This document shows positions 89 through 14,440 of a stretch of DNA of 54,252 nt, one piece after another. The DNA lies in the IMG/VR virus record IMGVR_UViG_3300038549_000013, positions 1-54,252 of that record, one strand, 5' to 3'. The translations under genes and the position numbers were made by a program. Under the pieces are notes generated by a model. It searched no databases, was not told the DNA's origin, and saw nothing but the letters and a program-made list of their open reading frames with translations. Position 1 is the first letter of the stretch, and each line of letters starts with the position of its first letter. Origin of the DNA: a virus (Duplodnaviria > Caudoviricetes).

Positions 89-828
89 CCTAGTAGGTCC
101 ATGTTTTGTTGAAATCCAGCGCCATCGCTATTCCACCTATGAGCAGCTGTGTGGTCTTCGATGTTCTCGATCATCACCACGGCGCGTGTGCGTTCTCGCC
201 TGGGCGTGTAAGAGCCGGTCCATCGCTGATCTCGGCCGCAGTTTCGGGCGACATTAGTGGAGTCGGCGGAGGCGAGAGGTAGCCTCGAAAATATCCCGGT
301 GTCTAGCATTCGCAGTCCATGAAGTTTGCACTTCGGCATGCCGTCAGCGTCGCACGCCACCGCCATGATCTCGGCCATGCGTGACCACCAGCGAGGCGTG
401 TTGGTGTCTGAGTACTGCCCGCTTGATCCAAGCGCGATGCGCGGGTATTCACTTACCAGTCGTTCGAGCCGCTCGAGGCTCTCGTGCATGTGGTACACGG
501 GCACAGAGACAGCCTTTGGCAGCGGCCAGCGCGCCAGATGCGCGTCGTTGTCTTCCTCGCTGCCATCGATGACGTCCGGGATCACGCACCAGTCGACTGC
601 CGGATGCTTGAGCCAATGCCGGCACCATGCAAGGTAGCCATCGAAGTCGTGCGCCTCTCCTGATTTCCACGCGCTGAAGGCGCCATTGTCCAGCACCACC
701 ATTTGGCAGACCTCGCAGGCTTCCTCAATCTGATCGGGCGCCTGAAAGCTAACCATGGCGTGCTTGCCCTTGTAGACTCGGCACATCACGTCCAGCGGAT
801 ACATCGGCAGGCCGTGGTATCTGATCAT
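85..828 (-). CDS. TGT/DpdA-like (deazaguanine transglycosylase fold) protein
   Basis: Motifs VVLDNGAFSAW (cf. TGT DSGG/DSGAF), IPDVI, VPVYH, IALG, LHGLR and SADST occur in TGT-barrel order. Confidence 0.7.
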   Translation of the reverse strand: MIRYHGLPMYPLDVMCRVYKGKHAMVSFQAPDQIEEACEVCQMVVLDNGAFSAWKSGEAHDFDGYLAWCRHWLKHPAVDWCVIPDVIDGSEEDNDAHLARWPLPKAVSVPVYHMHESLERLERLVSEYPRIALGSSGQYSDTNTPRWWSRMAEIMAVACDADGMPKCKLHGLRMLDTGIFSRLPLASADSTNVARNCGRDQRWTGSYTPRRERTRAVVMIENIEDHTAAHRWNSDGAGFQQNMDLLG

Positions 829-1064
829 GGCCGTATCGTTGTGATGTGGGTGCCGTGGTGGTGGGCTGTGATCGTTTGCCGCCCACCGAATCGCTCGAAC
901 AGCTTGTCGGCGATCTGCTCGTGATAGCCGATGTCAAAGTTCAGTATTTCCGACTGGAGCGACTCGACCATGATCGTGTCGTGTGACTCGATCGTGAGAT
1001 TGTAGGTCACCACGCGGCTGTTGTTCGGGCACTTCGCGGTGAATCGATGCGTATAGATGTTCAC
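825..1064 (-). CDS. small QueF-like (T-fold) protein
   Basis: GTG start overlaps the upstream stop. FTAKCP...IMVES...YHEQI...HGTHITT parallels QueF FTSLCP...VE.KS...FHE...GGI. Coupled to the TGT-like gene. Confidence 0.55.
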   Translation of the reverse strand: MNIYTHRFTAKCPNNSRVVTYNLTIESHDTIMVESLQSEILNFDIGYHEQIADKLFERFGGRQTITAHHHGTHITTIRP

Positions 1065-1258
1065 GGCTGCTCTCCCATCCACTCGTGATTCGGGTCGCGC
1101 TTCGAGGCATCTCCATTCCAGAAATGACCGAAATTTTGGACGGCGTGATTGATATCTGAAAGAGCAGCGTCGCGTTGGCTCCGTCTAAACGAAAAAAGAC
1201 CATTCTTGGATCGATGATAGATCCAACCAAGCAATTGCTCTGGCGTCAGATCGCTCAT
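1061..1258 (-). CDS. hypothetical protein
   Basis: 65-aa ORF with 4-bp overlaps at both ends. Confidence 0.6.
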   Translation of the reverse strand: MSDLTPEQLLGWIYHRSKNGLFSFRRSQRDAALSDINHAVQNFGHFWNGDASKRDPNHEWMGEQP

Positions 1259-1445
1259 GGCACCCCCGCGGGCGCTGCGCCCAATGCCGGGTAGTGGTCA
1301 GCGCTCGTCCCGAGCAGGCGCTCCAGCTGCAGCACCTCGCATTCCTTGAGGTGTGCCTGAGTCCTGAGCATGCTCGTTGCATTCGATCCCGCGAACTGAC
1401 TCAAGTCGAGTCTCCATCGCCGACAAATTCTGCCAGTAAAGGGTT

Positions 1446-2507
1446 TTAGCCATTGCCGTTCTCCTGCTTGCATGCTGGGCAATCTTCGCCTCGACCGTCG
1501 AAGCCATGCGTGCTGTAAATGTGCTCCAGCTTCTGCTCCGCCTGAGGCTGGTCTGCAGAGCTTTCCTTTTCGACCTGATCCCGCAGCAGCAGAGCGTATA
1601 TTGCGACCATCGCTTGCATTGTCTCAGGTCGCAGTCGGATAGGCGTCTTGTGCTCGCTGGTGACGAAACTCCACCAGTAATCGCCCTCGTGGAAAGATCC
1701 GTTAACCTCTGTGCCGTTCTCCAGCGTGATGGTGGTGCACTTCATTTCGATGATCTGATTCGGCTCATCGGCCTGCGGCTGGGCGAGGGCGGCGCGGGCG
1801 TAGTCGAGTGACATACGCCCCACCGATTCCCAGCTCAGCGGCTTTCGCGGGCCAGTAGAGCCGAGAGAATCCCATCCGGCCGACATGTCCAGTATCCACT
1901 GCAGATGCTCGCGCAACTTCCGCTCGCGCTCCTCAGCAGCCTTTGTTTTGAAGATGTACTCGTTGAGCTGGTCTTCTGCCTGACTGTGCATCATCTGGTA
2001 GCGCTCCATCCGCTCCCTCATCCCCCGCATATCCGCCAGCATCGCATCGCGGGCCGAGGCGTCGCTGGCGGCGTTTTGGGCGAGGGTGTCATAAGCGGAG
2101 AGCAGGTCTCGACGGATGTCGTACGTGTATTGCCATGTCGGCATCTCCTGCACAGGGCTGGCGGCGAGGTGCTCCAGTCGGATCTGCTCGACCCGCTCAT
2201 TCCGCTCCACCGCCACCGGCTTGCGCAACTCGGCGAGTTGTGAATGCAGGTCCGCTATCTGCAGAGCCATCGACTGCTCGCGATTGATGTAGGCAGCGAT
2301 GTTGAAGTCCTGGGTGGACAGCTTGCCGCGCAGCTCGGCGATGGTGGCATCGCGCTCACTAATTGCCCGCAGAAGAGTCGACACTGCGTCGCACGCCTCC
2401 AGATAAGCGGCGCGCTCGTGGGTGAACTCGTTAGCATTGCCGGCGAACCTGGATTCGGCTCGGCGCTTGATCGCCTGCAGCTGCTCGTCGGTGACTGGTG
2501 TGGTCAT
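1446..2507 (-). CDS. Ead/Ea22-like coiled-coil early protein
   Basis: 353 aa, with TDEQLQAIKRRAE start, long heptad-rich segments and a modular C-terminus typical of this early-region class. Confidence 0.55.
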   Translation of the reverse strand: MTTPVTDEQLQAIKRRAESRFAGNANEFTHERAAYLEACDAVSTLLRAISERDATIAELRGKLSTQDFNIAAYINREQSMALQIADLHSQLAELRKPVAVERNERVEQIRLEHLAASPVQEMPTWQYTYDIRRDLLSAYDTLAQNAASDASARDAMLADMRGMRERMERYQMMHSQAEDQLNEYIFKTKAAEERERKLREHLQWILDMSAGWDSLGSTGPRKPLSWESVGRMSLDYARAALAQPQADEPNQIIEMKCTTITLENGTEVNGSFHEGDYWWSFVTSEHKTPIRLRPETMQAMVAIYALLLRDQVEKESSADQPQAEQKLEHIYSTHGFDGRGEDCPACKQENGNG

Positions 2508-2508
2508 C

Positions 2509-2775
2509 TCAATCTCCGTTCAATGCCTTGTGAGTTTCTTTGGCGGTCAGCCCGATTGCCATGCAGCCGTGCAGGGTGGCGCTGAAGTAGTCTTTCCTGT
2601 GCTCCACGGCGAACCCACGAGCGACCAGTCTTTGCATAGATGCGTAGTGGTCGCAGCCAGGATTGCTGTTGAAGTGGTTGCGGTAGCACCAATGCTTGCG
2701 TGCCTTATCGCTGCGCACTCCCAGCATGTGGCGCAGGTTTTCGAGATCCTCAATCAAATGCTCGGCCTCGCTCAT
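2509..2775 (-). CDS. hypothetical phage protein (paralog of 10089..10427)
   Basis: HMLG...YRNHF...LVARG...FSAT..G pattern. Confidence 0.7.
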   Translation of the reverse strand: MSEAEHLIEDLENLRHMLGVRSDKARKHWCYRNHFNSNPGCDHYASMQRLVARGFAVEHRKDYFSATLHGCMAIGLTAKETHKALNGD

Positions 2776-2782
2776 CTTTGCC

Positions 2783-3073
2783 TCACTCAGCCGCGGCGCG
2801 CAGCGTTGGGAATTCGTTTTGCACGTGGTCAGCCGCCCTCAGCGAGCACTCGGCATCGTTGCACGCGAGGTGACGGGCGGGCGTGCAGATTTCGCGACAC
2901 CTCGGGCACAGCGGCTGGGCATAGTTACCTTCGCCGAGAAACTCAGTCACACCCTGTCGCGCGTCGAGTGCACGCAAGAAAGGCGCGACGCTGCCGTGAC
3001 CGTCCCAGCCGTAGAACAGTGCGCGCTCAGCGTCGGCGCGGGCCAGCTGGCAGATTCTGCATTCGCATGCCAT
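2783..3073 (-). CDS. Cys-rich hypothetical protein
   Basis: ATG overlaps the upstream TGA. Contains CECRIC and CPRC...C...C. Confidence 0.55.
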   Translation of the reverse strand: MACECRICQLARADAERALFYGWDGHGSVAPFLRALDARQGVTEFLGEGNYAQPLCPRCREICTPARHLACNDAECSLRAADHVQNEFPTLRAAAE

Positions 3074-3411
3074 CAGCCGCCCTCCGCCTTGCGAATCAGA
3101 TCCCAGATAGGCTTGCAGGTGCTGCACGGTACAGAGTGATCCCACGCGGGGTCGCCGTTCCTATCGTTTCCAACGATCTCCGCACTGCCGCCGCACGCCT
3201 CGCACTTACTGCCGTACTCGCGGACCATCTTTAGAAGTTCCGGCACACACTCGACGGCGCGAGCGATGGCGTGGCCTCGATCGTCCGAGCCGTTCTGGAT
3301 CTGAGCAAGGCAGACCTGTCCGTCCATGGCCATGACTTCCCAGTGGCCCGAGTCATCCTCGACCCAGATGTAGCACCATGTGTCGTACAGGTATCTCAGG
3401 GGGTCGCTCAT
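3073..3411 (-). CDS. hypothetical protein with CxxC...CxxC zinc site
   Basis: VPELL...CEACGGS...PCSTC; tandem paralog of the next gene. Confidence 0.65.
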   Translation of the reverse strand: MSDPLRYLYDTWCYIWVEDDSGHWEVMAMDGQVCLAQIQNGSDDRGHAIARAVECVPELLKMVREYGSKCEACGGSAEIVGNDRNGDPAWDHSVPCSTCKPIWDLIRKAEGG

Positions 3412-3743
3412 GCCTCACCCGTTGCCTTTGCGATTGTTTCTCGAACATCGGCGCATGCTTTACAAGGCTTGTCTGTGTCAGGAATGCGGCCCTCTCCATC
3501 CCAGATCCAGCTGAGTCCAGAGCCGCGACACACTTGGCACTCGCTGGCATACCGCCGCAGCAAAGCGAGCATTTCGGGAGCGGCGCAAATCAGCGCGGCG
3601 TTCGCCTCCTTTTCGCCTGCGGCGTCCATCGAGAAGCACTCGGCCAGGGCGTACGGTTTGCTGTCATCGCCGTCTACAACGATGCACGTCCGCCATGCCC
3701 AGCCGTTGTAGACATACCAGTTTCCTTCGGTGTGCTTCGCCAT
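3408..3743 (-). CDS. HTPGPW/ANARLIAAAP-type phage early protein with zinc site
   Basis: KHTEGNW...ANAALICAAPEML...CQVCRGSG...PCKAC...IAKATG. Confidence 0.7.
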   Translation of the reverse strand: MAKHTEGNWYVYNGWAWRTCIVVDGDDSKPYALAECFSMDAAGEKEANAALICAAPEMLALLRRYASECQVCRGSGLSWIWDGEGRIPDTDKPCKACADVRETIAKATGEA

Positions 3744-3965
3744 CTACGCCACATCTCCCATCCGCTCAAAAGCCACATCCGCCTGCACCAACTCGAGCAG
3801 CGCCCAGAAGGCGGTCAGGTCGCGGTAAAGCCTGTTGTCGTGCAGCTCGCCCTGCCAAATGTGCAGCATCGGGTCGCCGTACTCGCGCACCGCTCGCTCG
3901 AACGCCTCCATGTCCTCGGCATCGATGCGCTCGATGTAGGAGGCGGAGAAGGGGAGTGGAGTCAT
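3744..3965 (-). CDS. hypothetical protein
   Basis: 73-aa ORF tightly packed in the operon. Confidence 0.6.
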   Translation of the reverse strand: MTPLPFSASYIERIDAEDMEAFERAVREYGDPMLHIWQGELHDNRLYRDLTAFWALLELVQADVAFERMGDVA

Positions 3966-4786
3966 GCTGCGAACTCGCGCGGGTAGAACGTCCGCCCGAT
4001 GAATTCAGAAAGCTCGATCGGTATCTTGGCAATCATGGCGCTGGCGAATTTGCGCTTGCTGCTGTTGTGACTGCCGAGGCGCATCGGCGATGAAGAGCCC
4101 GCACCGAACCAGTCCCCACCGCACTTCGTGCCTTCGTCGATATTTTCACCTCGGAACCAGCTGCCACCGGCGTTCTTGATAGCCGAATCTCGAAAACATC
4201 CAGACGCGCCACTACTCTTGTAGTCCGGCTGGCCGTACTTGCTCCAGTCGAGTCCGCCGACTTTCACGCCGCGCTTGCGCGGAATCGGCAACAGCGCAGG
4301 CACATCCCCCCAAAGGTAGAAACTGCCGTAGCGCCCGCGAGCACGGCCTACCCAGGGCTGCGCGCCCTTGACGTTCTCGACCACCATCGGGATGTGCCGG
4401 CCAGCCGCGGCACATGCCTCGCGCTGGATGCGGAAGCAAGCATCGAACAGTGCCGTGAGCTCGGCCGTGGTACGCGAGCCATCGTAGCCGTCCGGGAAAT
4501 CACATTGCCCGCGCAGCGCTCCAGCAATCTGCTTCGCACGCTGCCACGGCATCGCCATGTAGCTGAACTCCGTGCACGGCGGACTCGCCACAATCAGATC
4601 CGCCGAGGCGAACTGCTTGCCGTGAAGAGTGAGAACGTTCTGCAGCACCAGCTGCGCGGGATAGCGGTGCTGGCCGTAGACGTGTTGCTCGATGTCAAAG
4701 CCGATGACTTTCCAGCCAGTGGCGAGCAGACCATCGGTCCAACCTCCCAGGCCCGAGAACAAATCTATGGCGAGCGGCTTGCTCAC
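3962..4786 (-). CDS. DNA cytosine-C5 methyltransferase-like protein (divergent)
   Basis: Motif I IDLFSGLGG, motif II GFDI, motif IV ASPPCTEFS, motif VI VENV. Confidence 0.8.
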   Translation of the reverse strand: MSKPLAIDLFSGLGGWTDGLLATGWKVIGFDIEQHVYGQHRYPAQLVLQNVLTLHGKQFASADLIVASPPCTEFSYMAMPWQRAKQIAGALRGQCDFPDGYDGSRTTAELTALFDACFRIQREACAAAGRHIPMVVENVKGAQPWVGRARGRYGSFYLWGDVPALLPIPRKRGVKVGGLDWSKYGQPDYKSSGASGCFRDSAIKNAGGSWFRGENIDEGTKCGGDWFGAGSSSPMRLGSHNSSKRKFASAMIAKIPIELSEFIGRTFYPREFAA

Positions 4787-5160
4787 TTCGCCCCCGCCTG
4801 CGCGCCAGGAGCTGGCTCAAGGGCTTCATATGTGCGGTCGTAGCCGTTGCTCTCTCGCCAAGACAAGATAGCCTGGTCGAGAGTTGGGTGACGATCAACA
4901 CTGGAGCCTTGGCGTGTGCGTCGCTGCCACATAGCAATGCCAACTCGACCAGGACCGCTCCGGATTATCTTGACTCGGACACACAAGTCGTGGGCTAGAA
5001 AGACCAAACGTGTCAGGCATTCAGAGTCGAATGTGGCCAACCCCGTATAGGTAGCCACCTTCCATCCGCCCCCGAATGGCTTGATGTCCGGGCAGTGGTG
5101 CGCGCCGCGAAAGAAGCGGTGAAAGAAGCGCTCGGCTTCCTCTTTTGTCGTCTGTCTCAT
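4783..5160 (-). CDS. hypothetical phage protein
   Basis: 125 aa, with GAHH...LATFD...LTRLVFLAHD.CVRV; coupled overlaps. Confidence 0.7.
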   Translation of the reverse strand: MRQTTKEEAERFFHRFFRGAHHCPDIKPFGGGWKVATYTGLATFDSECLTRLVFLAHDLCVRVKIIRSGPGRVGIAMWQRRTRQGSSVDRHPTLDQAILSWRESNGYDRTYEALEPAPGAQAGAK

Positions 5161-5402
5161 GCCGTTACTCCTCTCCGCTCAACCTTCACACGCACAGCCT
5201 CGATGGCCGTGTTGCACGCCTGCCTGTACAGCCGACTCGCATCCGCCAGCAGGCGCGGGCTCTTGCCATTGAGAGCACGGGCGAGCTGATTGCGGCGCAC
5301 GAGCAGCTGGCGCTGTAGCGGCCATGGGGCTAGCGCGTAATGCTCGAGGCACATCACGGCGTTGGAAGGCATCGCGCGGGCGCAGATGGGGCAGGGGTTC
5401 AC
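5157..5402 (-). CDS. small zinc-finger protein
   Basis: CPIC...MCLEHY; coupled overlaps. Confidence 0.6.
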   Translation of the reverse strand: MNPCPICARAMPSNAVMCLEHYALAPWPLQRQLLVRRNQLARALNGKSPRLLADASRLYRQACNTAIEAVRVKVERRGVTA

Positions 5403-5674
5403 AGCACGCCCCTGTAGAGCCGCCTCTGGTCAATGCCGAGGGCCTTGGCAATCTCGGCCAGCGTATGGATGTGTACACGCTGCCTGCCTCCATGCTCGAC
5501 GTTGGTCAGCCACGTTCGAGTCATCTTCAGTTTCTTGGCGAAGTCCTCTTGCGTAATCCCGGCCTTCTCGCGCTCGGCCTTGATGTTGGCGCCGATCGCT
5601 GCGTAGATAGGCTCGACGTAGATCACACGCCAGACCGTCTTGGTTTGCTTGATCCGCGTTGGCTTTGGTTTCAT
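5399..5674 (-). CDS. XRE-family HTH regulator
   Basis: IGANIKAEREKAGITQEDFAKKLKMTRTWLTNVEHG. Confidence 0.85.
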   Translation of the reverse strand: MKPKPTRIKQTKTVWRVIYVEPIYAAIGANIKAEREKAGITQEDFAKKLKMTRTWLTNVEHGGRQRVHIHTLAEIAKALGIDQRRLYRGVL

Positions 5675-6039
5675 TGCTTGGCCCGCCCGAACTGACGCAT
5701 TGCCATCTCGTGTGCGCGATATGCGTCGTCTTGGTTTTCAAAGCCGACCGTGAGGGTGTAGCCGCTCAGGTGATTTTTGGTGTAGGCGAAAGACGCTACC
5801 GGATTCGGCGCTGGCTTTTGCGGCCTTATCCAGTGCGTACACAGCCCCTTCGCCCACGCCAGCGTGTACAGAAAGCACAGCGCGAAGAAGCCCCACTGCT
5901 CGGCGCTCCATGCCGCGTAATACCAAAATGGCTGTCCAGCCAGACCAAACAGGCACGCGTACCGCTGCAGCTTGGGACCGCTCTGAGAGAGCGCGATAGC
6001 AGTGACGCCGGTCATGGCGATGGCGATTTGGTCGATCAT
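5671..6039 (-). CDS. small 3-TM membrane protein (half-PnuC-like) with soluble tail
   Basis: Three hydrophobic segments around GLAGQPFW..A....QWG; ATGA-coupled start at 6039. Confidence 0.55.
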   Translation of the reverse strand: MIDQIAIAMTGVTAIALSQSGPKLQRYACLFGLAGQPFWYYAAWSAEQWGFFALCFLYTLAWAKGLCTHWIRPQKPAPNPVASFAYTKNHLSGYTLTVGFENQDDAYRAHEMAMRQFGRAKQ

Positions 6040-6374
6040 GGCGCGTGCCTCCCGTGCCCGCTGCAACGCGAGCACTGCGACACTGAGATGCGTCCAATCG
6101 GACCGAAGTGCTGCACGTCTGAACCAGTGCCATTGCAGACACGGCAAGTGACCTTGGACCGCTCTTTTTCCAGTTCCTTTTTCAGCCGCTCAGCTTCTGT
6201 GGGGCCACGATATGGGCCGGCTGCTGCAGGTCCGCCGAAATAGTCGCCAGCGGTCTCAGCGCAGTCGCAGACATCGAGCGCCAGCGCGTCGACTTGTGCC
6301 GCGGTGACCTCAATGCCGTGCTCGGCGCATTGCTCGGCCAGCATCTCCTTCCAGAACTGCAGACGCTCTCTCAT
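6036..6374 (-). CDS. protein with DnaJ-type zinc-finger repeats
   Basis: CRVCNGTG and CSRCSGHG (CxxCxGxG). Confidence 0.7.
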   Translation of the reverse strand: MRERLQFWKEMLAEQCAEHGIEVTAAQVDALALDVCDCAETAGDYFGGPAAAGPYRGPTEAERLKKELEKERSKVTCRVCNGTGSDVQHFGPIGRISVSQCSRCSGHGRHAP

Positions 6375-6595
6375 GCAGCCTCCCGCAGCAGTTCGCTGAC
6401 GTTGCACTGATGCACCAAGAAGCTAATGGCCCACACCCAGGTCCCCGTCCCCGCAGCCTTCGCCGCCTGCGCGCCAGGGGCGGGCTCAGCAGAGGGCAGC
6501 TCCATCGCGTCCAGCGGACTGATGCGCCAAAGTTGCTCGTAGTCGATCCGGTTGGCCAGGGCCAGGATGCATTCGGGTTTGTTCTTGCCGCTCAT
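6371..6595 (-). CDS. hypothetical protein
   Basis: 74-aa ORF coupled on both sides. Confidence 0.5.
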   Translation of the reverse strand: MSGKNKPECILALANRIDYEQLWRISPLDAMELPSAEPAPGAQAAKAAGTGTWVWAISFLVHQCNVSELLREAA

Positions 6596-6765
6596 AGCGC
6601 TCTACCCCATGCCACCCACAGCAGCGCATACTCGATGTGCTTCGGTATCGGCTTGCCTGCTATGTAGTACCGCATCTGCCGAGGGCTGATCTCTATCAGC
6701 CGAGCGGCGCCGCACTGGGTCAGTCCTGCTTCTTCCAGCAGGCGCCGGAGTTGCTTGGGGGTCAT
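6592..6765 (-). CDS. Aca1-like small HTH regulator
   Basis: LRRLLEEAGLTQCGAARLIEISPRQMRYYIAG.PIP..IEYAL resembles Aca1 (LRGLLKKAGISQRRAAELLGLSDRVMRYYLS...APYTVQFAL, recalled from memory). Confidence 0.75.
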   Translation of the reverse strand: MTPKQLRRLLEEAGLTQCGAARLIEISPRQMRYYIAGKPIPKHIEYALLWVAWGRAL

Positions 6766-7109
6766 CCGAAGAGCGCCTTTGAAAGTTGCTGGACGTTCCA
6801 TGAGCTACCCAGGCGCTCTGCTGCTATCTTCGCCAAAGCATCGGCGCCGACTTTGAATGCGGCTTCGATGCCGGCCACGACTTGCAAGATCACCTCGGCC
6901 CTGCGGGCCACGAGCTGTTGGCGCACCTCCGGAAGTACTTCCTTCTCGATCCACTCGCCAACCTCCTTGGCCACGGCTTCCTTCACCTTCCAGCCGATCT
7001 CGCCTTGGATGGAATTCACGGCGCCGGCCACGATATTTTGGACGATCTGTCCACGCTGCTCGGATAGAGCGCGGGCTATCTCTGAATCGAAGTCAACCTG
7101 TTCGGTCAT
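6762..7109 (-). CDS. helical hypothetical protein, candidate anti-defence/anti-CRISPR
   Basis: 115 aa, with its own promoter and AAGGA RBS; coupled to the Aca1-like gene. Confidence 0.6.
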   Translation of the reverse strand: MTEQVDFDSEIARALSEQRGQIVQNIVAGAVNSIQGEIGWKVKEAVAKEVGEWIEKEVLPEVRQQLVARRAEVILQVVAGIEAAFKVGADALAKIAAERLGSSWNVQQLSKALFG

Positions 7110-7145
7110 GGTAATGATCCTTCTGTGATGCCGTTAGGTATGCGC

Positions 7146-7175
7146 ACTGTATGCTCAGTGTGCCTAGGCAGTCAA
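7146..7175 (-). promoter_or_regulatory. sigma70 promoter with operator in the spacer
   Basis: TTGACT-N18-TACAGT, overlapped by the imperfect palindrome TAGGCACACTGAGCATA. Confidence 0.7.
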
Positions 7176-7198
7176 GTCCTAGCAGACGGGCAAGGCTA

Positions 7199-7372
7199 TC
7201 AGCCTTCCTCCAGCATTATCTTGCGCACTGCCAACTCTAGAATCTGCTCATTGGTGAGCGGCTTCTCGCCACTCTTGTGCTTTTCCCATGCATCGCGAAT
7301 CTCGCGAAGCTCATGGGAGCGCAAGTAACGTGACTCGCCTTCGTGCTGCTGACACATTTCAGCTACCCTCAT
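7199..7372 (-). CDS. hypothetical protein
   Basis: Small ORF in operon context. Confidence 0.5.
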   Translation of the reverse strand: MRVAEMCQQHEGESRYLRSHELREIRDAWEKHKSGEKPLTNEQILELAVRKIMLEEG

Positions 7373-7559
7373 GTGCGGTCTCCGCAGCCTTCGCCGCACT
7401 GCGGTGCCGCATCTCGCGTAGCATCTGCTCGCCGACGCACCGAGCTGCATGCTGGTGCATCAGCTCAGCCGCATTGGCGGCATCCGCCTCAGTCGAGAAC
7501 GGCAGCGATTCGTAGCCCTCGATCCGCCATTGGCCGTTGTAGTCGCGGTGGATGTTCAT
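7359..7559 (-). CDS. hypothetical protein
   Basis: 66-aa ORF, ATGA-coupled to the Ref-like gene. Confidence 0.55.
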   Translation of the reverse strand: MNIHRDYNGQWRIEGYESLPFSTEADAANAAELMHQHAARCVGEQMLREMRHRSAAKAAETAHEGS

Positions 7560-7897
7560 GTGAACCTCTTCTCTATTTCGGTTAGGAGATCGTCAACCTC
7601 AGCCAGCAGCTCGCGCTCAGTGCCGAAGCGCTCAATGAATGCCTTCTTGTCCAGTCGCAGCGATGGACCGAACTGCTTGGTGGCCTCAGACGGTCTCATG
7701 CCATTGGGCGGCTCGCCGCGGTGAAACCAAGCGGACAGCGGAATCGTGGCTTTGTTTCCGCCAGAGTGCTTACGGTAGCTACTGCCGACGATGTGGTGCA
7801 TCTCCGGGGCAACCCAGCCCAGGCCGAGCTTCCTGGAGCAGATACAGCCGATACGGCGCAAGCGGTCGAAGCGCTGCTGGTCGGTTTTACTAGTCAC
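7556..7897 (-). CDS. Ref-like RecA-dependent recombination-enhancement nuclease
   Basis: IGCIC...EMHH...TIPL...HRG...FGPSL...F...FG.E.ELL. Confidence 0.75.
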   Translation of the reverse strand: MTSKTDQQRFDRLRRIGCICSRKLGLGWVAPEMHHIVGSSYRKHSGGNKATIPLSAWFHRGEPPNGMRPSEATKQFGPSLRLDKKAFIERFGTERELLAEVDDLLTEIEKRFT

Positions 7898-8298
7898 GCG
7901 GCCACCTCTCCGGGCATCTCCAAGTAAACGCCTTCATTCGCCATATACCGCACGATGAATTCCACGAAGTCAGAGAACTCCTGCTTGTTGAGCTTCGAGC
8001 TGCGCCGCAGGGCAGTGCGCTTCTTTACGCTGCCGAGCGTGAGCACCTTCGAGCCGAAGTGGAGCTGCAAAAATAGCTCGTGCAAGTCGTCTTTGTCCCA
8101 GCCGGCCATCATCTCCCCGCCGCGCTTGATGATCTCGCCGTAGATGGACCATAGGAGTGCATTTTGATCCAGCGTGCGCCGCTTCTTATGCGGCTTCACG
8201 GCGATCTCAGTCGCGCCATCACGTACCATCGCCTGGATGACGGCGAAGGCTCGCGTCATGTCGCCGCCCTTGCTGATGATGATGCGCTGCTCGTTCAC
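7894..8298 (-). CDS. NinB/Orf-family recombination protein
   Basis: RTLDQNALLW...SSKLNKQEFSDFVEFI....A..GV. Confidence 0.8.
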   Translation of the reverse strand: MNEQRIIISKGGDMTRAFAVIQAMVRDGATEIAVKPHKKRRTLDQNALLWSIYGEIIKRGGEMMAGWDKDDLHELFLQLHFGSKVLTLGSVKKRTALRRSSKLNKQEFSDFVEFIVRYMANEGVYLEMPGEVAA

Positions 8299-8301
8299 AG
8301 G

Positions 8302-8808
8302 TCAGACCGTGTAGCCGAGGAAGTTGGAAGCAGCGCACAGCGCGCCGAGCACGCAGGCGATCAGCCAGACGAAGGGGATGTTGTCATCAAACCCGCCATC
8401 ATCCGCTGGCGCTTGCCGCTGCGGCTCATCCTTGCTGCGACTCTCGGTCGCCGGCCGCGACTCGACATCGCGCTTGCCGCCGAGCATCTGCATCTGGCTG
8501 GCGATGATCTCGGTGCTGTACCGATCCTTGCCCTCTTTGTCCTGCCACTTGCGCGTGCGCATGGCGCCCTGGATGAAGACTTGAGAGCCTTTGCGCAGGT
8601 ACTCGGCGCAGATCTCTCCAAGCTTGTCGAAGGCGACGATGTTGACCCACTCGGTCTGTTCCTTGCGGTCGCCGGTCTGCTTGTCCTTCCATGAGGAGCC
8701 GACGGCGATGCTGAAGTTGACCACGGCCTTGCCGCTGGGCATGTGCCGCGTTTCCGGGTCACGGCCCAAGCGGCCGATAAAACTACATTGATTCAAGTCG
8801 TTGCTCAT
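8302..8808 (-). CDS. ssb: single-stranded DNA-binding protein with extra hydrophobic tail
   Basis: LNQCSFIGRLGRDPE...EQTEW...YLRKGSQVFIQG..RTRKW...FDDNIPF. Confidence 0.95.
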   Translation of the reverse strand: MSNDLNQCSFIGRLGRDPETRHMPSGKAVVNFSIAVGSSWKDKQTGDRKEQTEWVNIVAFDKLGEICAEYLRKGSQVFIQGAMRTRKWQDKEGKDRYSTEIIASQMQMLGGKRDVESRPATESRSKDEPQRQAPADDGGFDDNIPFVWLIACVLGALCAASNFLGYTV

Positions 8809-9419
8809 CCAGAAATCCTCTCTACAAGGGCTTTCAACTGCCCGTTGAACTTTTCGACCTCGGCAGCGAGCCGAGCGATGTAATCCTGGTCACGCTCCAC
8901 GCGCTTGCAGAATGGCGGCAGTCCCCTGCTGTACGATACGAAATCGACCCACAGCCGGCCGGTGATCCACATCTGACCTTGGATCTGCGCTGCGTGCTCG
9001 GTCGGGACGCGATTGTTCTCGAGCAACTCAATCTGCAGGTCTCCGGTGCGGGTCTTGATCTCAAGGCAGCCGTCCGAGACCACTAGGGAGTCCGGCGAGG
9101 CCCCCGCGTCTACGTCAGCCCGGTAGCAAAAGCCAACCTGCTGCGGCTCGACATCGCGGCTGAATGCGTACCAGCTGCGCGCCTCGGACTCCATGAGCTT
9201 GCCGCGCTCCATGTAGCCATTGCTGTAGCTCTCGGCTCGCTCACCGGTGATGCGCTCGGCGGCCAGTCGGCGCATGAGCTTCGCGCGGGTGACCGATGGC
9301 GAACCCTTGGTTTTGCCCTCGGCCAGCACCGTCGAAAAGTCGCTCGCAGACACGATACCGAGTCGGCATGCGTACCATTCATCCGAGCCCTGTGGGCAAT
9401 CGAAAATCTTCAGGCTCAT
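8805..9419 (-). CDS. YqaJ/lambda-exonuclease family protein
   Basis: QGSDEWYACRLG..SAS, MERG...E, GASPD.LV....LEIK, QIQGQMW. Confidence 0.9.
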   Translation of the reverse strand: MSLKIFDCPQGSDEWYACRLGIVSASDFSTVLAEGKTKGSPSVTRAKLMRRLAAERITGERAESYSNGYMERGKLMESEARSWYAFSRDVEPQQVGFCYRADVDAGASPDSLVVSDGCLEIKTRTGDLQIELLENNRVPTEHAAQIQGQMWITGRLWVDFVSYSRGLPPFCKRVERDQDYIARLAAEVEKFNGQLKALVERISG

Positions 9420-10039
9420 TTCTTTGCTCGCTTGCTCTCAAGCGCGGCCTTGGCCATTGCGAACTTGGATGCCGGGATATCGGCCAAGCGATCGACCTTC
9501 ATGTATGCCAGGAACTTCGGTCGATCTGCTTTCACCTCCTCTGCCAAATCCATCAGCTCAGTGACCTGATCCTCGCTGATGCCAGCTGCAACCTCATGAG
9601 TCGTTGCGTCGGCATCGTTGTCGCCTTCGGTCGGAATGCAGAAAGCCTCCATGCAGGCATACTTGTACGCCGCTGACATGGCCTTGTTGGATGCCTTGTC
9701 GCCGCTATCCATGGCCTCGCCTACCACTTGCACAGTGTGCTTTGATCCGTCGAGGGCCGACACAAAGTCGAACTCGACGTCTAGCACCACATAGAACAGC
9801 ACGCCGCCGCTTTTGGTCTCGCGCTCCGTAACCACCCGAGACTTCACCCTCGGCAGAATCAGTAGCTTTGATTCCGCCAGAAATGGCGCCAAGGCGTTGT
9901 ACACATCATCGATGCCGCGAAATTTGTAACCCTGCTGAGTGTTCTTGTTGTTCTTGCCGATGCCAACCTTTGCAAGCTTGGCCATGACCTCAGCGATTGC
10001 CGAGTATACCTGCGGTACGTTTTGAATTACTGCACTCAA
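9416..10039 (-). CDS. ERF-family single-strand annealing protein
   Basis: KNTQQGYKFRGIDDV...GEAMDSGDKASNKAMSAAYKY...DNDAD. Likely TTG start after an AGGAGA RBS. Confidence 0.88.
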   Translation of the reverse strand: MSAVIQNVPQVYSAIAEVMAKLAKVGIGKNNKNTQQGYKFRGIDDVYNALAPFLAESKLLILPRVKSRVVTERETKSGGVLFYVVLDVEFDFVSALDGSKHTVQVVGEAMDSGDKASNKAMSAAYKYACMEAFCIPTEGDNDADATTHEVAAGISEDQVTELMDLAEEVKADRPKFLAYMKVDRLADIPASKFAMAKAALESKRAKK

Positions 10040-10088
10040 GTGAAATTCTCCTAGTTCTGCGTGGTCGGTGTGATGTCGGTTACGGTGC

Positions 10089-10427
10089 TCATCGCGCACC
10101 TCGCTTCAGCCACTCGCCAAAAGTCATCCCGCTGTCGGCATCAAGAAACTCGTCGTAGCGCTTCTGTGAGCGCGTACGCTTTGGTGGGGCAGGGCTGTTC
10201 GTGTCGACGTACTCCCGTCCTCGGTCGGTCACCGCGAAGCAGTAATCGCCGCCGTACATTGCGCTGCTGCCAAAGTTGACCATCAGTCCCTCGGTGGTCA
10301 TCTCAGTCAGCAAAGACCACACGTCCGAGTCTCTGCCCGCGACGTAGTGGCTGCGGTACTGCTGTCCACGTCCGTACTGGTCGACGCCAAGCGCGTGCTG
10401 CAGGATTGAGAGGCGTGTTTCGCTCAT
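10089..10427 (-). CDS. hypothetical phage protein (paralog of 2509..2775)
   Basis: HALG...YRSHY...GLM...FAVT..G. Confidence 0.75.
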   Translation of the reverse strand: MSETRLSILQHALGVDQYGRGQQYRSHYVAGRDSDVWSLLTEMTTEGLMVNFGSSAMYGGDYCFAVTDRGREYVDTNSPAPPKRTRSQKRYDEFLDADSGMTFGEWLKRGAR

Positions 10428-10720
10428 TGCTGTGTCACCTCAATTCCCGCCCTCACCACGCCATCCACCGGCAGCTTCTGCACCGCCGTGGCCAGGCACC
10501 GCGTCACCTCGAATTTCCCCCGCTGCATCGTCAGCATCTCCGCTAGCGCAGGCCCGTGGTCGGCGAGCGCAACGGCCCATGCCTGCTTGCAGAGCGCCGT
10601 CTCATCGGTGACGTACACCTCGAGCAGCACGAGGTAGTGCGGAGCGATGTCGCTGGTCGCGGCTGGTGTTGCTTGGAGGGCGAGTACTAGTCCGATGGAT
10701 AGGGTTGCCAAGCGGGTCAT
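10424..10720 (-). CDS. hypothetical protein with possible signal peptide
   Basis: Hydrophobic N-terminus; coupled overlaps. Confidence 0.55.
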   Translation of the reverse strand: MTRLATLSIGLVLALQATPAATSDIAPHYLVLLEVYVTDETALCKQAWAVALADHGPALAEMLTMQRGKFEVTRCLATAVQKLPVDGVVRAGIEVTQQ

Positions 10721-10986
10721 TGCTGAATACCTCGCATTGCAATCTCCAGCCGTGCGCTCGATGCCTGCATGGAAATGACCGCCCGAGCAAGTTCTGCACG
10801 TAGATGCTGATGCTCCTCCTCGTCCTGCTTGCGATCACGGCTCGGTTTAATTGTCGCGCGCCTGAATAGTACGACCTTGCCTGAGCGCTCGCAGTCGATC
10901 TGGGCTGGTGTCTTTCCCTGATGCTGTCGCGGCGTCGTCAGCACCAGCAGTGCCGCGAATGCGGTGATGAGAGTTGCGGCGATCAT
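10717..10986 (-). CDS. hypothetical protein with N-terminal hydrophobic segment
   Basis: Starts MIAATLITAFAALLVL; ATGA coupling. Confidence 0.5.
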   Translation of the reverse strand: MIAATLITAFAALLVLTTPRQHQGKTPAQIDCERSGKVVLFRRATIKPSRDRKQDEEEHQHLRAELARAVISMQASSARLEIAMRGIQQ

Positions 10987-11210
10987 GGCTGCACCAGGCT
11001 GATCACGGCCATCGCCAGCCCCAGCACGCCGCACATCGCCTTGGCGACCAGCAACTCACCTTGAGCCGTGTTGAGCCTCGGCAGACGCGGCCAGCAGCGC
11101 AGTCGCTCGCGGTCCCAGTCGGCGGTGAGCTCGCACTTTTCTGGCGCCGTCAGCCGGATGAGCCGGCGGCGGGCGGTCCGGAAGCGTTGGCTGATGATCA
11201 GGGCGGTCAT
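10983..11210 (-). CDS. hypothetical protein with C-terminal TM segment
   Basis: ATGA coupling; ends in LLVAKAMCGVLGLAMAVISLV. Confidence 0.5.
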   Translation of the reverse strand: MTALIISQRFRTARRRLIRLTAPEKCELTADWDRERLRCWPRLPRLNTAQGELLVAKAMCGVLGLAMAVISLVQP

Positions 11211-11833
11211 TGCGTCATCCAATCGGCAATAGCTGGCAACTCGTGATCCAGCCGCATCGGCATGAGGGCGACGATCATGTCGTAGCCGCGAATCAGCAGC
11301 GCTGCATTAGCATCCTTCTGATACAGCCGCACCGGCTCCCGGACTTTCTTTCCAGACTCCGAAAATAGCGCCAGTGCGCGGCTCAGATACTCGGGGTTGA
11401 ACTCCGCGAGGATTCCCGGCGTTGATTCGTCGGTTGGAATCACCTTCTGCCAATCTGGGTAGGTGTCATCGATAAATGCCGGGCCAGCTTGTATCCAAGC
11501 TGCATCTGGCACGTGACTTGTTATCAGCAGCTCAGCATGAGATTCCTTCGAGCGGATTCTCAGATACCCAGCATCGAACCGCTCATGGCGGATCGCCTCG
11601 CACAGGTAGTCATTGACCTGCAGAATGAACGGCTCTTTGACGTCTGAGTCAATGCTGCGGGTCACAGCGATCATGTGGCCGTTGGTTGCGATGAGCCTGC
11701 ACCCATCTTCAGTCGGCTCGACTTTGATGCCTGACAGGTAATAGCGCGCATCGTTGATTGCGCGGAAGGGGATAATCCGCCGCAGATCCTGACATGAAAT
11801 CAGGGCGTAGTTCTTCTCTGTTACTTGGTTCAC
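11207..11833 (-). CDS. truncated DNA polymerase III beta-clamp-like protein
   Basis: DARYYLSGI, IATNGH, IDDTYPDWQKVIP, FNPEYL and LMPMRL match DnaN domains 2-3. Confidence 0.8.
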   Translation of the reverse strand: MNQVTEKNYALISCQDLRRIIPFRAINDARYYLSGIKVEPTEDGCRLIATNGHMIAVTRSIDSDVKEPFILQVNDYLCEAIRHERFDAGYLRIRSKESHAELLITSHVPDAAWIQAGPAFIDDTYPDWQKVIPTDESTPGILAEFNPEYLSRALALFSESGKKVREPVRLYQKDANAALLIRGYDMIVALMPMRLDHELPAIADWMTQ

Positions 11834-12018
11834 TGTTGGACTCCAAACAACGGCCAGCGCCTCGCGTTGGCCAAAATGCACGCGGGCTCGCCGCGTAGGA
11901 TGTATTGCCGGCCGCGCACGATGCGCACTTCCACGGGCAGCGAGTCGCGCTCACGGGCGGCGGCATACGGTGTGCGCGGGGCGTCGATCAGGGCGCGTAG
12001 ATACCTTGGTCGTTTCAT
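11830..12018 (-). CDS. hypothetical protein
   Basis: 62 aa, coupled on both sides. Confidence 0.5.
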   Translation of the reverse strand: MKRPRYLRALIDAPRTPYAAARERDSLPVEVRIVRGRQYILRGEPACILANARRWPLFGVQQ

Positions 12019-12431
12019 GGCTGCACCGGGGCGTCGCAGGCGGGTATGTGTTCCTCGATGAAGTCGGCGATTTCTGTGAAATTCAATTCAAGGTGATCGT
12101 TTAGATAGGCAAGGGCTCGTTGGATGCTGTTGATATGCTCTGGGCAATCATTCGCGTCCTCACCTTCATTCCATGGTCCCAGGAACGACTCGAACTCCCC
12201 TGAAAGAACCGATATAGCGGCGCAATCCATATCTTCCCTGTCCCGGCCAAGGACCGCATGGCACGCCACGCCCAGGCAACAGAACTCGTACTCGTCAAAT
12301 CGCTCGATGCAGAGACAGCCGGTTCCCTGCTCGTACTCGCCACTCCTTAGCGCAGCCAGCCACTTGTCCTTCTGCGCCTGCGTCATGGTGATGCCGGCGA
12401 GCCATTCGGGTTTGATTGTTGGGATGTTCAC
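12015..12431 (-). CDS. conserved phage hypothetical protein
   Basis: KWLAALRSGEYEQG...FCCLGV...LND...F.EIADFIE. Confidence 0.75.
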   Translation of the reverse strand: MNIPTIKPEWLAGITMTQAQKDKWLAALRSGEYEQGTGCLCIERFDEYEFCCLGVACHAVLGRDREDMDCAAISVLSGEFESFLGPWNEGEDANDCPEHINSIQRALAYLNDHLELNFTEIADFIEEHIPACDAPVQP

Positions 12432-12537
12432 AGTGTTGCTCCAAAGTACTGCCGCACCGAGTGCTGCAGAGACCATCCGAGGTAGGTGATACAGATGCCG
12501 GCCAGCACGAAGTACCAGCCGATGTTGCGGAGCGTGG

Positions 12538-12762
12538 TCATGCCCGCGCCCTCGCAACGATGCGAGCAAACTCAGCATCCCGTCTGCGCTCCTCGGTCAG
12601 CGGCAGAGGCCGGCCATCGGCCCACCGCAGCGCCAGCTCGGCGTCAATCGCGCGCAGCTGGTCCGACTGGTTATGCTCGTAGCTGCTGTCGTTCCCGCGG
12701 CTCACCAGCGTGTCGTGCATCAGGCGCAGGGTGGCGAGAGTGATGTGTTCGAGGGCGCTCAT
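12538..12762 (-). CDS. hypothetical protein
   Basis: 74 aa, coupled overlaps. Confidence 0.55.
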   Translation of the reverse strand: MSALEHITLATLRLMHDTLVSRGNDSSYEHNQSDQLRAIDAELALRWADGRPLPLTEERRRDAEFARIVARARA

Positions 12763-13577
12763 GGCTTAGGCGCCTCAACCCTCACAGCGATCATCCGGCG
12801 CACCAGATCCAGAGCGCTCGCCTGCAGCTGATCAACTGTTGGCTTTAGCGCGTCCCCACAGGCGTGCCCACAGGCGGCCCGAGCGGCGGCCCCAGCGGCG
12901 GCCCAAGCGGCGGCCCCAGCGGCGGCCCCAGCGGCGGCCCAAGCGGCGTCCCCAGCGGCGGCCCAAGCGGCGGCCCCATAGGCGTGCCCACAGGCGGCCC
13001 GAGCGGCGTCACCAGCGGCGGCCCGAGCGGCCTCCCCAGAGGCGGCCCCAGCGGCGGCCCAAGCGGCGGCCCCAGCGGCGGCCCGAGCGGCGGCCCCAGC
13101 GGCGGCCCGAGCGGCGGCCCCAGCGGCGGCACAAGCGGCGCGAACCTTCTGCCCTGCAGCGGTTGCGCCAGCAAGGTCTGCAATCTCCTCCATCGAGCGC
13201 AACTCGAGCGCGTGCGGCTTGAGCGACTCGACTCGATCGAGAAATGCAGGCGTGTGCACGCGGATTAACCAGTCGAGCGCCATGTACGAGCGGCGATCCT
13301 CAACTGCATGGGTTGATTTCGTGCCGATCAGTTCGGGGATCAGCGGCTTCAAGAGGCGGTCACGCTCCGCATCACTCGGCAGCCCGTCGTTCCAGGAGCG
13401 CAGGAATGCGGCGATCACTGGGCAGGAGCACTCCGGCTGATCAGAGAGCGGCAGGCCGGCGACGTACGCGACAGCCTCCATCACACATGCCTCGCCAGCG
13501 GTTATTTTTTCGGGCTCGTGGCTTCCGCTGCGCAGAGACCAAGCGGTTATCTCAGCCAGTCTTGTTTGAATTGCCAT
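12759..13577 (-). CDS. phage protein with Ala-rich AAW/AAR/AAG repeat tract
   Basis: ACVMEAVAYVAG...SDQPEC.CPVI......WND domain followed by about 95 aa of AAAG/AAAW/AAAR repeats; GGAG RBS. Confidence 0.8.
   Translation of the reverse strand: MAIQTRLAEITAWSLRSGSHEPEKITAGEACVMEAVAYVAGLPLSDQPECSCPVIAAFLRSWNDGLPSDAERDRLLKPLIPELIGTKSTHAVEDRRSYMALDWLIRVHTPAFLDRVESLKPHALELRSMEEIADLAGATAAGQKVRAACAAAGAAARAAAGAAARAAAGAAAWAAAGAASGEAARAAAGDAARAACGHAYGAAAWAAAGDAAWAAAGAAAGAAAWAAAGAAARAACGHACGDALKPTVDQLQASALDLVRRMIAVRVEAPKP
12856..13140. repeat. coding 12-bp degenerate tandem repeat
   Basis: Units gcggcggcccca / gcggcggcccaa / gcggcggcccga repeated about 20 times. Confidence 0.9.
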
Positions 13578-14375: not shown

Positions 14376-14440
14376 ATCATGCAGCAACGCGGATCAGCCG
14401 TCAACGCCTAATTGCGTACCCACGTCACATGTGCAATGAT
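14376..14440. promoter_or_regulatory. back-to-back early promoters
   Basis: Minus strand TTGACG-N17-CATGAT (14404-14376) and plus strand TTGCGT-N17-AATGAT (14412-14440), at the strand switch. Confidence 0.65.

Follow-up and report, generated by a model that had tools for sequence, protein, structure and literature searches.

A candidate acr-aca1-type cassette with a trimmed Aca1-like regulator and uncharacterised cargo in the leftward early operon of a P22-like phage

New anti-CRISPR and anti-defence genes are mostly tracked down by way of Aca regulators, and Aca1 is best known from Mu-like Pseudomonas phages. The closest described system is the acrIF1-aca1 operon of Pseudomonas phage JBD30 (PDB 7C0G, 7VJM, 7VJN; phrog_3865), in which a promoter with an operator in its spacer precedes a small cargo gene, whose end is overlapped by the HTH gene. 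Promoter spacers are the usual place of Aca operators (PMC12658196), and a 5'-UTR RNA hairpin bound by Aca1 has been reported in 207 acr-aca1 operons, according to a survey of IMG/VR and RefSeq for Aca-regulated operons whose cargo lacks annotation (Feussner et al., NAR 2026, PMC13551039). That survey places Aca1 and Aca2 motifs ahead of about 450 genes, of which less than half have been given a function, and proposes them as anti-defence candidates. Distant Aca1 homologs could not be confirmed in acr operons (PMC8633003).

In the window, i.e., the whole 54,252-nt stretch of metagenomic phage DNA that was analysed, we found a locus with the acr-aca architecture: a predicted promoter of its own with an operator-like site, then a small cargo gene and, in the same operon, an HTH gene, which overlaps the cargo's end as in JBD30 (Table 1). 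The window phage is P22-like, and the cassette occupies the accessory, distal part of its leftward early operon, whereas JBD30 is Mu-like and carries its operon in the late region. The initial annotation had described a 115-aa gene coupled to a 57-aa HTH gene, and this structure was borne out: the two genes lie on the minus strand with an ATGA overlap, and a second ATGA overlap joins the HTH gene to the 74-aa gene that follows. Among the six frames, the 115-aa ORF scored highest for coding (0.43 per codon), and an antisense ORF of 163 aa scored -0.04. We put the chances at about even that the locus is a divergent acr-aca1-type cassette with uncharacterised cargo, set in the early operon of this phage.

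Table 1. Positions of the cassette and its flanking features in the window, in the order of leftward transcription.
Feature	Position	Strand	Description
Sigma70-like promoter	7146..7175	minus	-35 TTGACT 7175..7170, 18-nt spacer, -10 TACAGT 7151..7146 (predicted)
Aca1-operator-like site TAGGCACACTGAGCATA	7150..7166	minus	left half-site GGCAC perfect, right half-site degenerate (3/5)
Tandem 11-nt direct repeat	7138..7159	minus	82% identity; spans right half of operator-like site and -10 hexamer
Ribosome-binding site AAGGA	7118..7122	minus	8 nt ahead of the ATG of the 115-aa gene
115-aa cargo gene	6762..7109	minus	all-helical (model), mildly acidic; uncharacterised phage family
57-aa Aca1-like HTH gene	6592..6765	minus	ATG overlaps stop of 115-aa gene (ATGA); alternative 69-aa start at 6801
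74-aa gene	6371..6595	minus	ATGA overlap with HTH gene; no family match; operon runs on past the HTH gene
Next gene, 112-123 aa	6036..6407	minus	DnaJ-type CxxCxGxG zinc-finger-like C-terminus; phrog_27975

Comparison of the HTH with JBD30 Aca1 showed 39% identity across all 57 residues (pairwise E 8e-11), and in a search of 177,635 PDB sequences the best three matches were Aca1 chains (E 3.6e-5), with the next match at E 0.15. These results upheld the Aca1-like call of the initial annotation, which had also given the Aca1 peptide correctly. A search of the PHROGs returned phrog_3865 as the best PHROG (E 2.8e-8), the same one to which JBD30 Aca1 belongs, with a match covering only positions 13-46 of 74; JBD30 Aca1 itself matches this PHROG over its full length (E 1e-45). 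The HTH had no match in the phage collection, and a word-based protein search returned the query itself only. The AF2 model (pLDDT 95.4) is a four-helix XRE-type HTH, as in Aca1, and its best six Foldseek matches in the PDB were Aca1 chains (TMq 0.80-0.83, rmsd 1.0-1.6 A, E only about 5e-3), although this match is not fully independent because the alignment behind the model consisted of Aca1 relatives.

The residues by which Aca1 reads bases are R44, V45, R47, Y48 and R59, as seen in the Aca1-DNA structure (PMC8633003). Three of these, the two arginines and the tyrosine of the recognition helix, are identical in the HTH (R29, R32 and Y33), and two are replaced (V45 by Q30 and R59 by K38). The backbone contacts of Aca1, R22, Q32, S42 and Y49, are all kept. 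The HTH differs from JBD30 Aca1 in lacking 15 N-terminal residues, including the conserved PDASxHNPD arm, and six residues of loop 3-4, and the C-terminal helix, which in Aca1 lies in the dimer interface, is divergent. In the alternative 69-aa form, the 12 extra residues fall outside the alignment with Aca1 relatives. Judged from its sequence and predicted model, the HTH is a genuine but trimmed and divergent relative of Aca1.

The operator-like site equals IR2 of JBD30, as taken from the JBD30 record and PMC8633003, at 14/17 positions, in agreement with the initial annotation, and it is the sole place in the window with three or fewer mismatches to IR2 (0.04 expected). By a weight matrix derived from 17 canonical Aca1 operators, TAGGCACACTGAGCATA likewise came first in the window, with 10.3 bits compared to 6.8 at the next position; canonical operators score 19-30 bits by the same matrix. 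Random 54-kb sequences hold about one site this good each, with at least one in 63/100, and therefore the significance of the site rests on its location. The window's top site falls in the one gap, of 89 bp, that immediately precedes the operon of the Aca1-like protein, for which the chance is 89/54,252, or about 0.002. Within this gap it lies inside the spacer of the predicted promoter, with its last two bases within the -10 hexamer; the JBD30 operator also ends with two bases inside a -10-like hexamer by our own reading of that region, in which a promoter scan gave no promoter-like site.

The left half-site, GGCAC, is identical to that of JBD30, but by the standard of a palindromic operator with GGCAC or GGAAC half-sites only this half is perfect, and the two mismatches of the right half are the G and A that Aca1 reads specifically in the JBD30 Aca1-IR2 crystal structure. 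Furthermore, JBD30 has paired perfect repeats (IR1 and IR2), whereas here there is a single site overlapped by an 11-nt tandem repeat. The 5'-UTR RNA hairpin of acr-aca1 operons is absent here: the predicted folding of the leader does not exceed that of shuffled sequence (z about 0), Rfam gave no match, and a profile including the GCCAGCC...GGCGAGGCG hairpin does not match the regulatory region of the cassette. Homology of the whole regulatory region to canonical Aca1 regions was considered as well, since a MAFFT alignment hinted at common CTAACGNCAT and AAGGAT..ACCATGA strings. However, an nhmmer profile of 15 canonical Aca1 regulatory regions found no match in 7100-7200 at E <=10, and these strings are unproven. 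The Aca1-type operator proposed in the initial annotation is supported as one site in a predicted promoter spacer, and is weakened by the degenerate half-site and the missing RNA motif.

The internal sigma70 promoter of the initial annotation, TTGACT-N18-TACAGT, is present where Table 1 places it and matches the consensus at 9/12 positions; its activity is predicted from sequence. It is the sole promoter-like match in 5000-9000, where shuffles expect 0.7. Between positions 1 and 16000 there were two promoter-like matches, both on the coding strand, compared to 3.5 expected, so the count is not above chance. The second of these (14404..14376) heads the leftward operon. The 89-bp gap in which the internal promoter sits (7110-7198) belongs to an operon that is otherwise tightly packed; it is this place, and not the count, that supports the promoter. 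No terminator-like site was reported in 7110-7200, just upstream of the promoter, and read-through into the cassette is therefore likely. None was found on the minus strand in 6000-6600 either. One DNA run contains the stretch and may be where it came from, and no RNA dataset is listed as containing it.

Alternatively, promoter and operator might both be chance matches, with transcription coming from the head promoter near 14404 and the HTH acting elsewhere or not at all on this DNA. Such an origin would fit the partial consensus match, the promoter count, the frequency of 10.3-bit sites in random sequence, the canonical regulatory-region profile without a match here, and the likely read-through. 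It would leave the position of the window's top site, in the single gap upstream of an Aca1-like operon and inside a promoter spacer up to the -10 hexamer, to coincidence, and we consider it quite unlikely. Autoregulation of the predicted promoter by the HTH is somewhat more probable than not.

We then turned to the cargo. A search of 1.84 billion representative proteins returned 91 matches to the 115-aa protein, including the query, nearly all of them 108-131 aa long and aligned at near full length; the exceptions were one protein of 939 aa and one of 86 aa. Conserved motifs of the family (alignment A1) are W, LPEV and SWN, without conserved residues of catalytic type, and a search with the A1 profile found six other proteins at E <=1e-5, while a word-based search with the single protein returned only the query. 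The nearest ESM Atlas clusters were 74-88% viral. Family members are soluble and mildly acidic (median pI 5.2), and the AF2 model of the 115-aa protein (pLDDT 90.5) is all-helical with long helices. Most of the homologs come from Logan or ENA assemblies. The family is thus real, and it was previously unannotated in the libraries searched.

As the initial annotation had stated, the 115-aa protein is no recognisable Acr. Queries with the protein alone and with 40 family members gave nothing consistent in Pfam, PHROGs, NCBIfam or PADLOC, and a PDB profile search gave only a 29-residue coiled-coil match. Tblastn of three family members against 50,697 phage records, and of the 115-aa protein against 72,556 plasmid records, found no match, and the gene upstream of the HTH is accordingly no known acr by either route. 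The cargo is also unrelated to AcrIF1 of JBD30. Foldseek with the 115-aa model gave no match in the PDB or BFVD, and a wide VIA-align search gave generic coiled coils only (Z <=6.7, rmsd mostly 12-21 A). Homology to RecBCD inhibitors had been prompted by the recombination neighbours of the gene and an ESM lead of 0.77 to T7 Gp5.9, and it was rejected because the hhalign probabilities for lambda Gam and T7 gp5.9 stayed under 1%. Inhibition of RecBCD as a function, as distinct from homology, is still conceivable for this protein.

Restriction-modification C proteins and XRE antitoxins (C.EcoT38IS, C.Kpn2I, HipB, HigA, MqsA) autoregulate at operators that overlap their promoters. Their fold is the small dimeric HTH of XRE type, and they were lower structural matches of our HTH (TMq 0.64-0.86). 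They differ from it in having no significant sequence similarity, as the E value of the first PDB match after Aca1 shows, and no restriction gene or toxin is recognisable beside this HTH. The fold of Aca1 itself has been found to resemble those of HigA2 and MqsA (PMC8633003). This resemblance, the presence of HipB antitoxins among the structural matches, and a gene order with a toxin-like gene first and a translationally coupled HTH gene second would suit a toxin-antitoxin pair in the reversed HigBA/MqsRA order, with the 115-aa protein as toxin and the HTH as DNA-binding antitoxin. However, the all-helical model of the 115-aa protein suggests no RelE/MqsR-type fold, the family has no conserved catalytic-type residues, and no toxin family of PADLOC or Pfam was matched. 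The pairing is not conserved either, as the homolog and loci described below show, and we regard a toxin-antitoxin pair as very improbable.

The neighbours of a family member elsewhere bear on the preferred reading of an acr-aca1-type cassette as well. The initial annotation had proposed to check the neighbours of homologs, and two results count against its reading: none of 22 other Aca1-like loci in IMG/VR had a member of the 115-aa family within 2.5 kb (0/22), and the sole homolog that could be retrieved from IMG/VR, at locus L002, has no Aca in its locus and no HTH downstream. There it heads a phage early operon and adjoins the CI/Cro region, which holds an HTH_3 gene and a CI-like S24 repressor; YopX and AAA_24 (Sak4-type) genes lie downstream of it. 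A match that seemed to place a family member at another locus, L003, was spurious, and further IMG/VR, metagenome and genome scans for homolog loci found none.

In the window, the 115-aa gene comes after a block of recombination genes (Erf/exonuclease/SSB/NinB/Ref-like). The neighbourhood of the cassette also has anti-restriction-type content, namely two DNA methyltransferases, a DpdA-like transglycosylase and a control-protein-like HTH. The HTH gene is in mid-operon with further coupled genes downstream, and does not close a short self-contained operon, whereas aca1 is the last gene in JBD30. The two genes downstream of the HTH gene, like the DNA of the region, had no match in the phage collection.

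These observations raise the alternative that the HTH is an ordinary early-operon regulator of the XRE/Aca1 fold, acting like Cro or a C protein, and that the 115-aa protein has no part in anti-defence but is a conserved housekeeping early protein, for example one accessory to replication, recombination or regulation. The place of its gene behind the recombination block, the mid-operon HTH gene without a terminal aca, the early operon headed by the homolog at L002 beside a CI-like repressor and an HTH_3 gene, and the 22 Aca1-like loci that all lack the family point in this direction. Moreover, the family keeps a constant length across many divergent phages, which is no less expected of a conserved phage function than of a typical narrow-range Acr. 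On the other side, the HTH is closest to Aca1 and not to Cro or C proteins in both sequence and fold, and the cassette has a predicted promoter of its own with an Aca1-type half-site in the spacer. The absence of the family from the phage records probed with three tblastn queries would be odd for a core function, and hhalign relates the protein to neither lambda Gam nor T7 gp5.9. We judge a housekeeping role to be rather unlikely.

Like the operons in the survey of Feussner et al. (PMC13551039), the cassette pairs an Aca1-type motif with an uncharacterised gene downstream. The survey used covariance models of DNA and RNA motifs, whereas here the DNA site is weak and there is no RNA motif; it may have missed this locus for that reason.

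If the locus is an acr-aca1-type cassette, the internal sigma70 promoter would drive a burst of the 115-aa protein together with the translationally coupled HTH. The HTH, probably as a dimer, would then bind the GGCAC-containing site in the spacer and shut the promoter, as Aca1 does at acr promoters. The cargo would be a soluble, probably oligomeric, long-helix protein, which most likely would bind a host factor early in infection and block or redirect it. Its role might be anti-defence or host takeover, with anti-CRISPR activity as one sub-case. The association with the regulator is the one line of evidence that points to an anti-defence protein of any kind, to which we give somewhat less than an even chance; an anti-CRISPR protein specifically seems quite unlikely. 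On a broader view, which we offer tentatively and well short of even odds, the 115-aa protein would found a new and widely spread family of phage anti-defence proteins, whose long-helix oligomers would bind an immune effector of the host, for example a nuclease or a CRISPR-Cas complex, and so block it. The early regulator in control would differ between phages, i.e., an Aca1-like autorepressor here and an immunity-region promoter at L002.

Altogether, our results show that a trimmed, divergent relative of Aca1, as judged by sequence and model, is not limited to the Mu-like Pseudomonas phages. Here it accompanies, and may control, a phage protein whose family is unannotated in all libraries searched. 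The combination of a degenerate half-site, a missing RNA motif and an Aca1 without its arm would offer a test of how much of the Aca1 system repression needs. If the cargo is not an inhibitor, the locus would caution that ordinary phage regulation can make use of Aca1-like HTHs as well, and the association would have to be weighted accordingly. Should it prove to inhibit host immunity, the family would add a new, widespread class, and, should the anti-defence reading of the family be true, its roughly 90 sequence clusters would form a ready-made panel of inhibitors.

The sequence of Aca1 given in the initial annotation agreed with gp36 of Pseudomonas phage JBD30 (JX434032), which is Aca1. The 57-aa HTH protein of the cassette was 39% identical to JBD30 Aca1 over the full HTH length (pairwise E 8e-11), and an unbiased PDB-wide sequence search placed Aca1 chains in the top three positions (E 3.6e-5), the next match having an E value of 0.15. 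A profile check against families, as the annotation had proposed, gave phrog_3865 as the best PHROG (E 2.8e-8); JBD30 Aca1 matches this family over its whole length (1e-45), and the HTH covers only positions 13-46 of the 74-position profile. The six best Foldseek matches to the AF2 model of the HTH (pLDDT 95.4) were Aca1 chains (TMq 0.80-0.83), a support that is not fully independent because the AF2 input alignment consisted of Aca1 relatives. According to excerpted text of PMC8633003, Aca1 residues R44, V45, R47, Y48 and R59 read the half-site 5'-GGCAC-3', and R22, Q32, S42 and Y49 contact the backbone. The HTH carries R, Q, R, Y and K at the base-reading positions and R, Q, S and Y at the backbone positions. 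In a comparison with 13 IMG/VR Aca1-like proteins, it lacked the conserved N-terminal PDASxHNPD arm, and the loop that bears R59 was six residues shorter. In view of these absences and the partial coverage of phrog_3865, the HTH is, as read from its sequence, an atypical relative of Aca1, both trimmed and divergent.

The proposed promoter, TTGACT-N18-TACAGT, was found on the minus strand, with TAGGCACACTGAGCATA lying within its spacer. An AAGGA stands 8 nt upstream of the cargo ATG, and the annotated coupling of the 115-aa and 57-aa genes held, since the cargo TGA (6764..6762) overlaps the HTH ATG as ATGA; a 74-aa ORF likewise starts within the HTH gene, its ATG overlapping the HTH TGA. With a codon-usage score derived from 17 long genes of this phage, we obtained 0.43 per codon for the cargo frame, the highest of the six, versus -0.04 for an antisense 163-aa ORF. 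Promoter-like matches numbered one in 5000-9000 and two in 1-16000, counts that were not above those of shuffles. What supports the promoter is thus not statistics but where it lies, in an 89-bp gap of an operon otherwise made up of abutting or overlapping genes.

Coordinates of features in the window, and of one Aca1-like gene in another IMG/VR locus
Feature	Position	Strand	Basis or remark
DpdA-like gene	85-828	-	phrog_887 queuine tRNA-ribosyltransferase, E 3e-65; last of leftward operon
C5 cytosine methyltransferase	3962-4786	-	second HTH lies ~600 bp upstream
Second HTH, 91 aa	5399-5674	-	PADLOC R-M 'Control_protein' models, E 6e-11; Pfam HTH_31/HTH_3
57-aa HTH	6592-6765	-	
115-aa cargo	6762-7109	-	ATG at 7109
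11-nt tandem repeat	7138-7159		spans right half-site and -10 hexamer
Cassette promoter-like site	7175..7146	-	
Operator-like site	7166..7150	-	
Ref-like RecA-dependent nuclease	7556-7897	-	PF16786, E 2e-16
Promoter-like site, operon head	14404..14376		promoter scan
Second DNA methyltransferase	17625-18515	+	rightward early region
HNH endonuclease	18481-18930	+	rightward early region
Nucleoside 2-deoxyribosyltransferase-like gene	18909-19229	+	rightward early region
222-aa gene	27877-28545	-	no PHROG or Pfam match
Palindrome arrangement	~28572-28640	-	upstream of 222-aa gene
L026 Aca1-like protein	2468-2692 (of L026)	+	

The operator-like site was confirmed to match the JBD30 inverted repeat IR2, TAGGCACAATGTGCCTA, at 14 of 17 positions, and it was the one site in the window with three or fewer mismatches to IR2 (0.04 expected). 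Its last two bases fall inside the -10-like hexamer, as they do in JBD30, where the hexamer was read by eye, the promoter scan having returned no promoter-like site in that region. Of its half-sites, the left one is perfect and the right one matches at 3/5 positions, the mismatches being the G and A that Aca1 reads. On a weight matrix of 17 canonical Aca1 operators (JBD30 and 16 IMG/VR loci), the majority of which have GGAAC half-sites, the site ranked first of all window positions at 10.3 bits (runner-up, 6.8), whereas canonical operators scored 19-30 bits. Random 54-kb sequences contained about one site as good, and 63 of 100 had at least one, so the argument for the operator is positional: the best site falls within the one 89-bp gap, some 0.002 of the window, that would be expected to hold an Aca1-type operator. 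Weighing the counts against this placement, we consider it improbable that promoter and operator are both chance matches.

The canonical Aca1 regulatory regions, in JBD30 and the IMG/VR loci L006-L025, were strikingly conserved: a TTGC or TTGAC -35, a palindrome with half-sites GGAAC in most and GGCAC in JBD30, an AT-rich -10, the hairpin GCCAGCCACAACGGCGAGGCG, and AAGGAG..ACACCATGA. This hairpin was near-invariant in an alignment of 15 distinct canonical regions, and excerpted text of PMC13551039 describes an RNA hairpin just past the transcription start, conserved in 207 acr-aca1 operons and bound by Aca1. The window differs from such operons in that its leader lacks the hairpin, folding no better than shuffles, and in that its HTH gene is not the last of its operon. 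With an nhmmer profile built from those 15 regions, 7100-7200 gave no match at E <=10. In locus L026, an Aca1-like protein has the recognition helix ISPRQMRY in common with the window HTH; its gene ends a long coupled operon and adjoins a lysis module, and the 1.5 kb upstream of it holds no Aca1-type operator. L026 is a second locus in which an Aca1 relative is encoded elsewhere than in a self-contained acr operon. Elsewhere in the window, a perfect palindrome, CCGCAAT-G-ATTGCGG, between TTGCCT and TAGATT hexamers forms a second promoter-plus-operator-like arrangement, which matched the profile of Aca1 regulatory regions weakly (E 0.37).

A word-based protein search with the cargo returned only itself, and an exhaustive phmmer search of 1.84 billion representatives gave 91 proteins at E <=1e-3, the query included, seven of them at E <=1e-10. 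Nearly all are 108-131 aa long and align over near-full length, the exceptions being one of 939 aa and one of 86 aa. An alignment of 40 members showed a conserved W, an (E)EVxPEV motif and a C-terminal KNLxxSWNxxKxxxALF, and no conserved catalytic-type residue. As the annotation had supposed, the cargo lies outside known families: it and the 40 members had no consistent Pfam, PHROG, NCBIfam or PADLOC family, and a PDB profile search gave a short coiled-coil match only. In the AF2 model (pLDDT 90.5, pTM 0.41) the chain folds into three helices (3-68, 70-100, 103-114); Foldseek gave no matches to it, and VIA-align only generic coiled coils. Judging from this model, the cargo appears to be helical and elongated and probably requires partners. 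With a median pI of 5.2 the family is mildly acidic, and hydrophobic stretches of transmembrane grade are absent from it. In the ESM Atlas, the closest clusters were unnamed and 74-88% viral; the three members searched, of the 91, had no match in 50,697 deposited phage genomes, nor did the window cargo in a plasmid collection. That the coupled genes are a toxin-antitoxin pair seems to us very unlikely.

The sole home locus of a cargo homolog examined, a 41-kb IMG/VR contig (L002), has the homolog as first gene of an early operon, with a divergent HTH_3 gene 435 bp away and a CI-like S24 repressor close by. It is followed by genes of no assigned function, YopX and an AAA_24 ATPase, and by no HTH gene. 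Around 22 Aca1-like genes of IMG/VR, a family HMM found no cargo-family member out to a distance of 2.5 kb. The pairing of cargo and Aca1-like gene therefore appears unique to the window in this small sample, most cargo homologs being from assemblies outside the comparison. An ordinary phage regulator beside a housekeeping early protein is the main competing explanation, and we regard it as somewhat unlikely.

The window comprises an entire IMG/VR virus record of 54,252 bases (G+C 60.7%), complete by CheckV. The phage encodes a P22-like portal protein, which among cultured phages comes closest to that of a Pseudomonas phage (40% identity) and those of Ralstonia phages (38%). Its long leftward operon runs from ~14,400 to the window's left end: RusA-like, Erf, exonuclease, SSB, NinB and Ref-like (PF16786) genes and two small ORFs precede the cassette, and a zinc-finger-like gene, a membrane protein, the second HTH and the C5 DNA methyltransferase follow it, with the DpdA-like transglycosylase at the far end. 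This order places the cassette in the accessory, distal part of the early operon. No RecBCD inhibitor was recognisable in the recombination block.

The C5 methyltransferase may be under C-protein-type control; no restriction gene was recognised near it or the second HTH. The DpdA-like gene, which has no Pfam match, suggests by its sequence that 7-deazaguanine modification of phage DNA may serve as an anti-restriction device; the window ORFs that were scanned included no recognisable preQ0 synthesis genes. Three genes of the rightward early region are further content related to DNA modification. The neighbourhood has an anti-restriction flavour, with two methyltransferases, the DpdA-like gene and the control-protein-like HTH, and its agreement with the clustering of anti-defence genes to which the title of PMC7648647 refers is weak evidence.

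Altogether, the locus is best read as a divergent acr-aca1-type cassette, in which an internal early promoter would express a non-enzymatic helical cargo that would act on a host factor, and the Aca1-like product would shut off its own internal promoter. We consider autoregulation by the HTH rather probable, an anti-defence role of any kind for the cargo possible though tentative, and anti-CRISPR activity in particular unlikely. According to excerpted text of PMC13551039, hundreds of unannotated genes lie downstream of Aca1 and Aca2 motifs and have been proposed as anti-defence candidates; since the Aca-motif concept is thus already in print, the locus would be an atypical member of a known cassette type, and what is new here is the cargo family, together with the stripped-down regulator and site.
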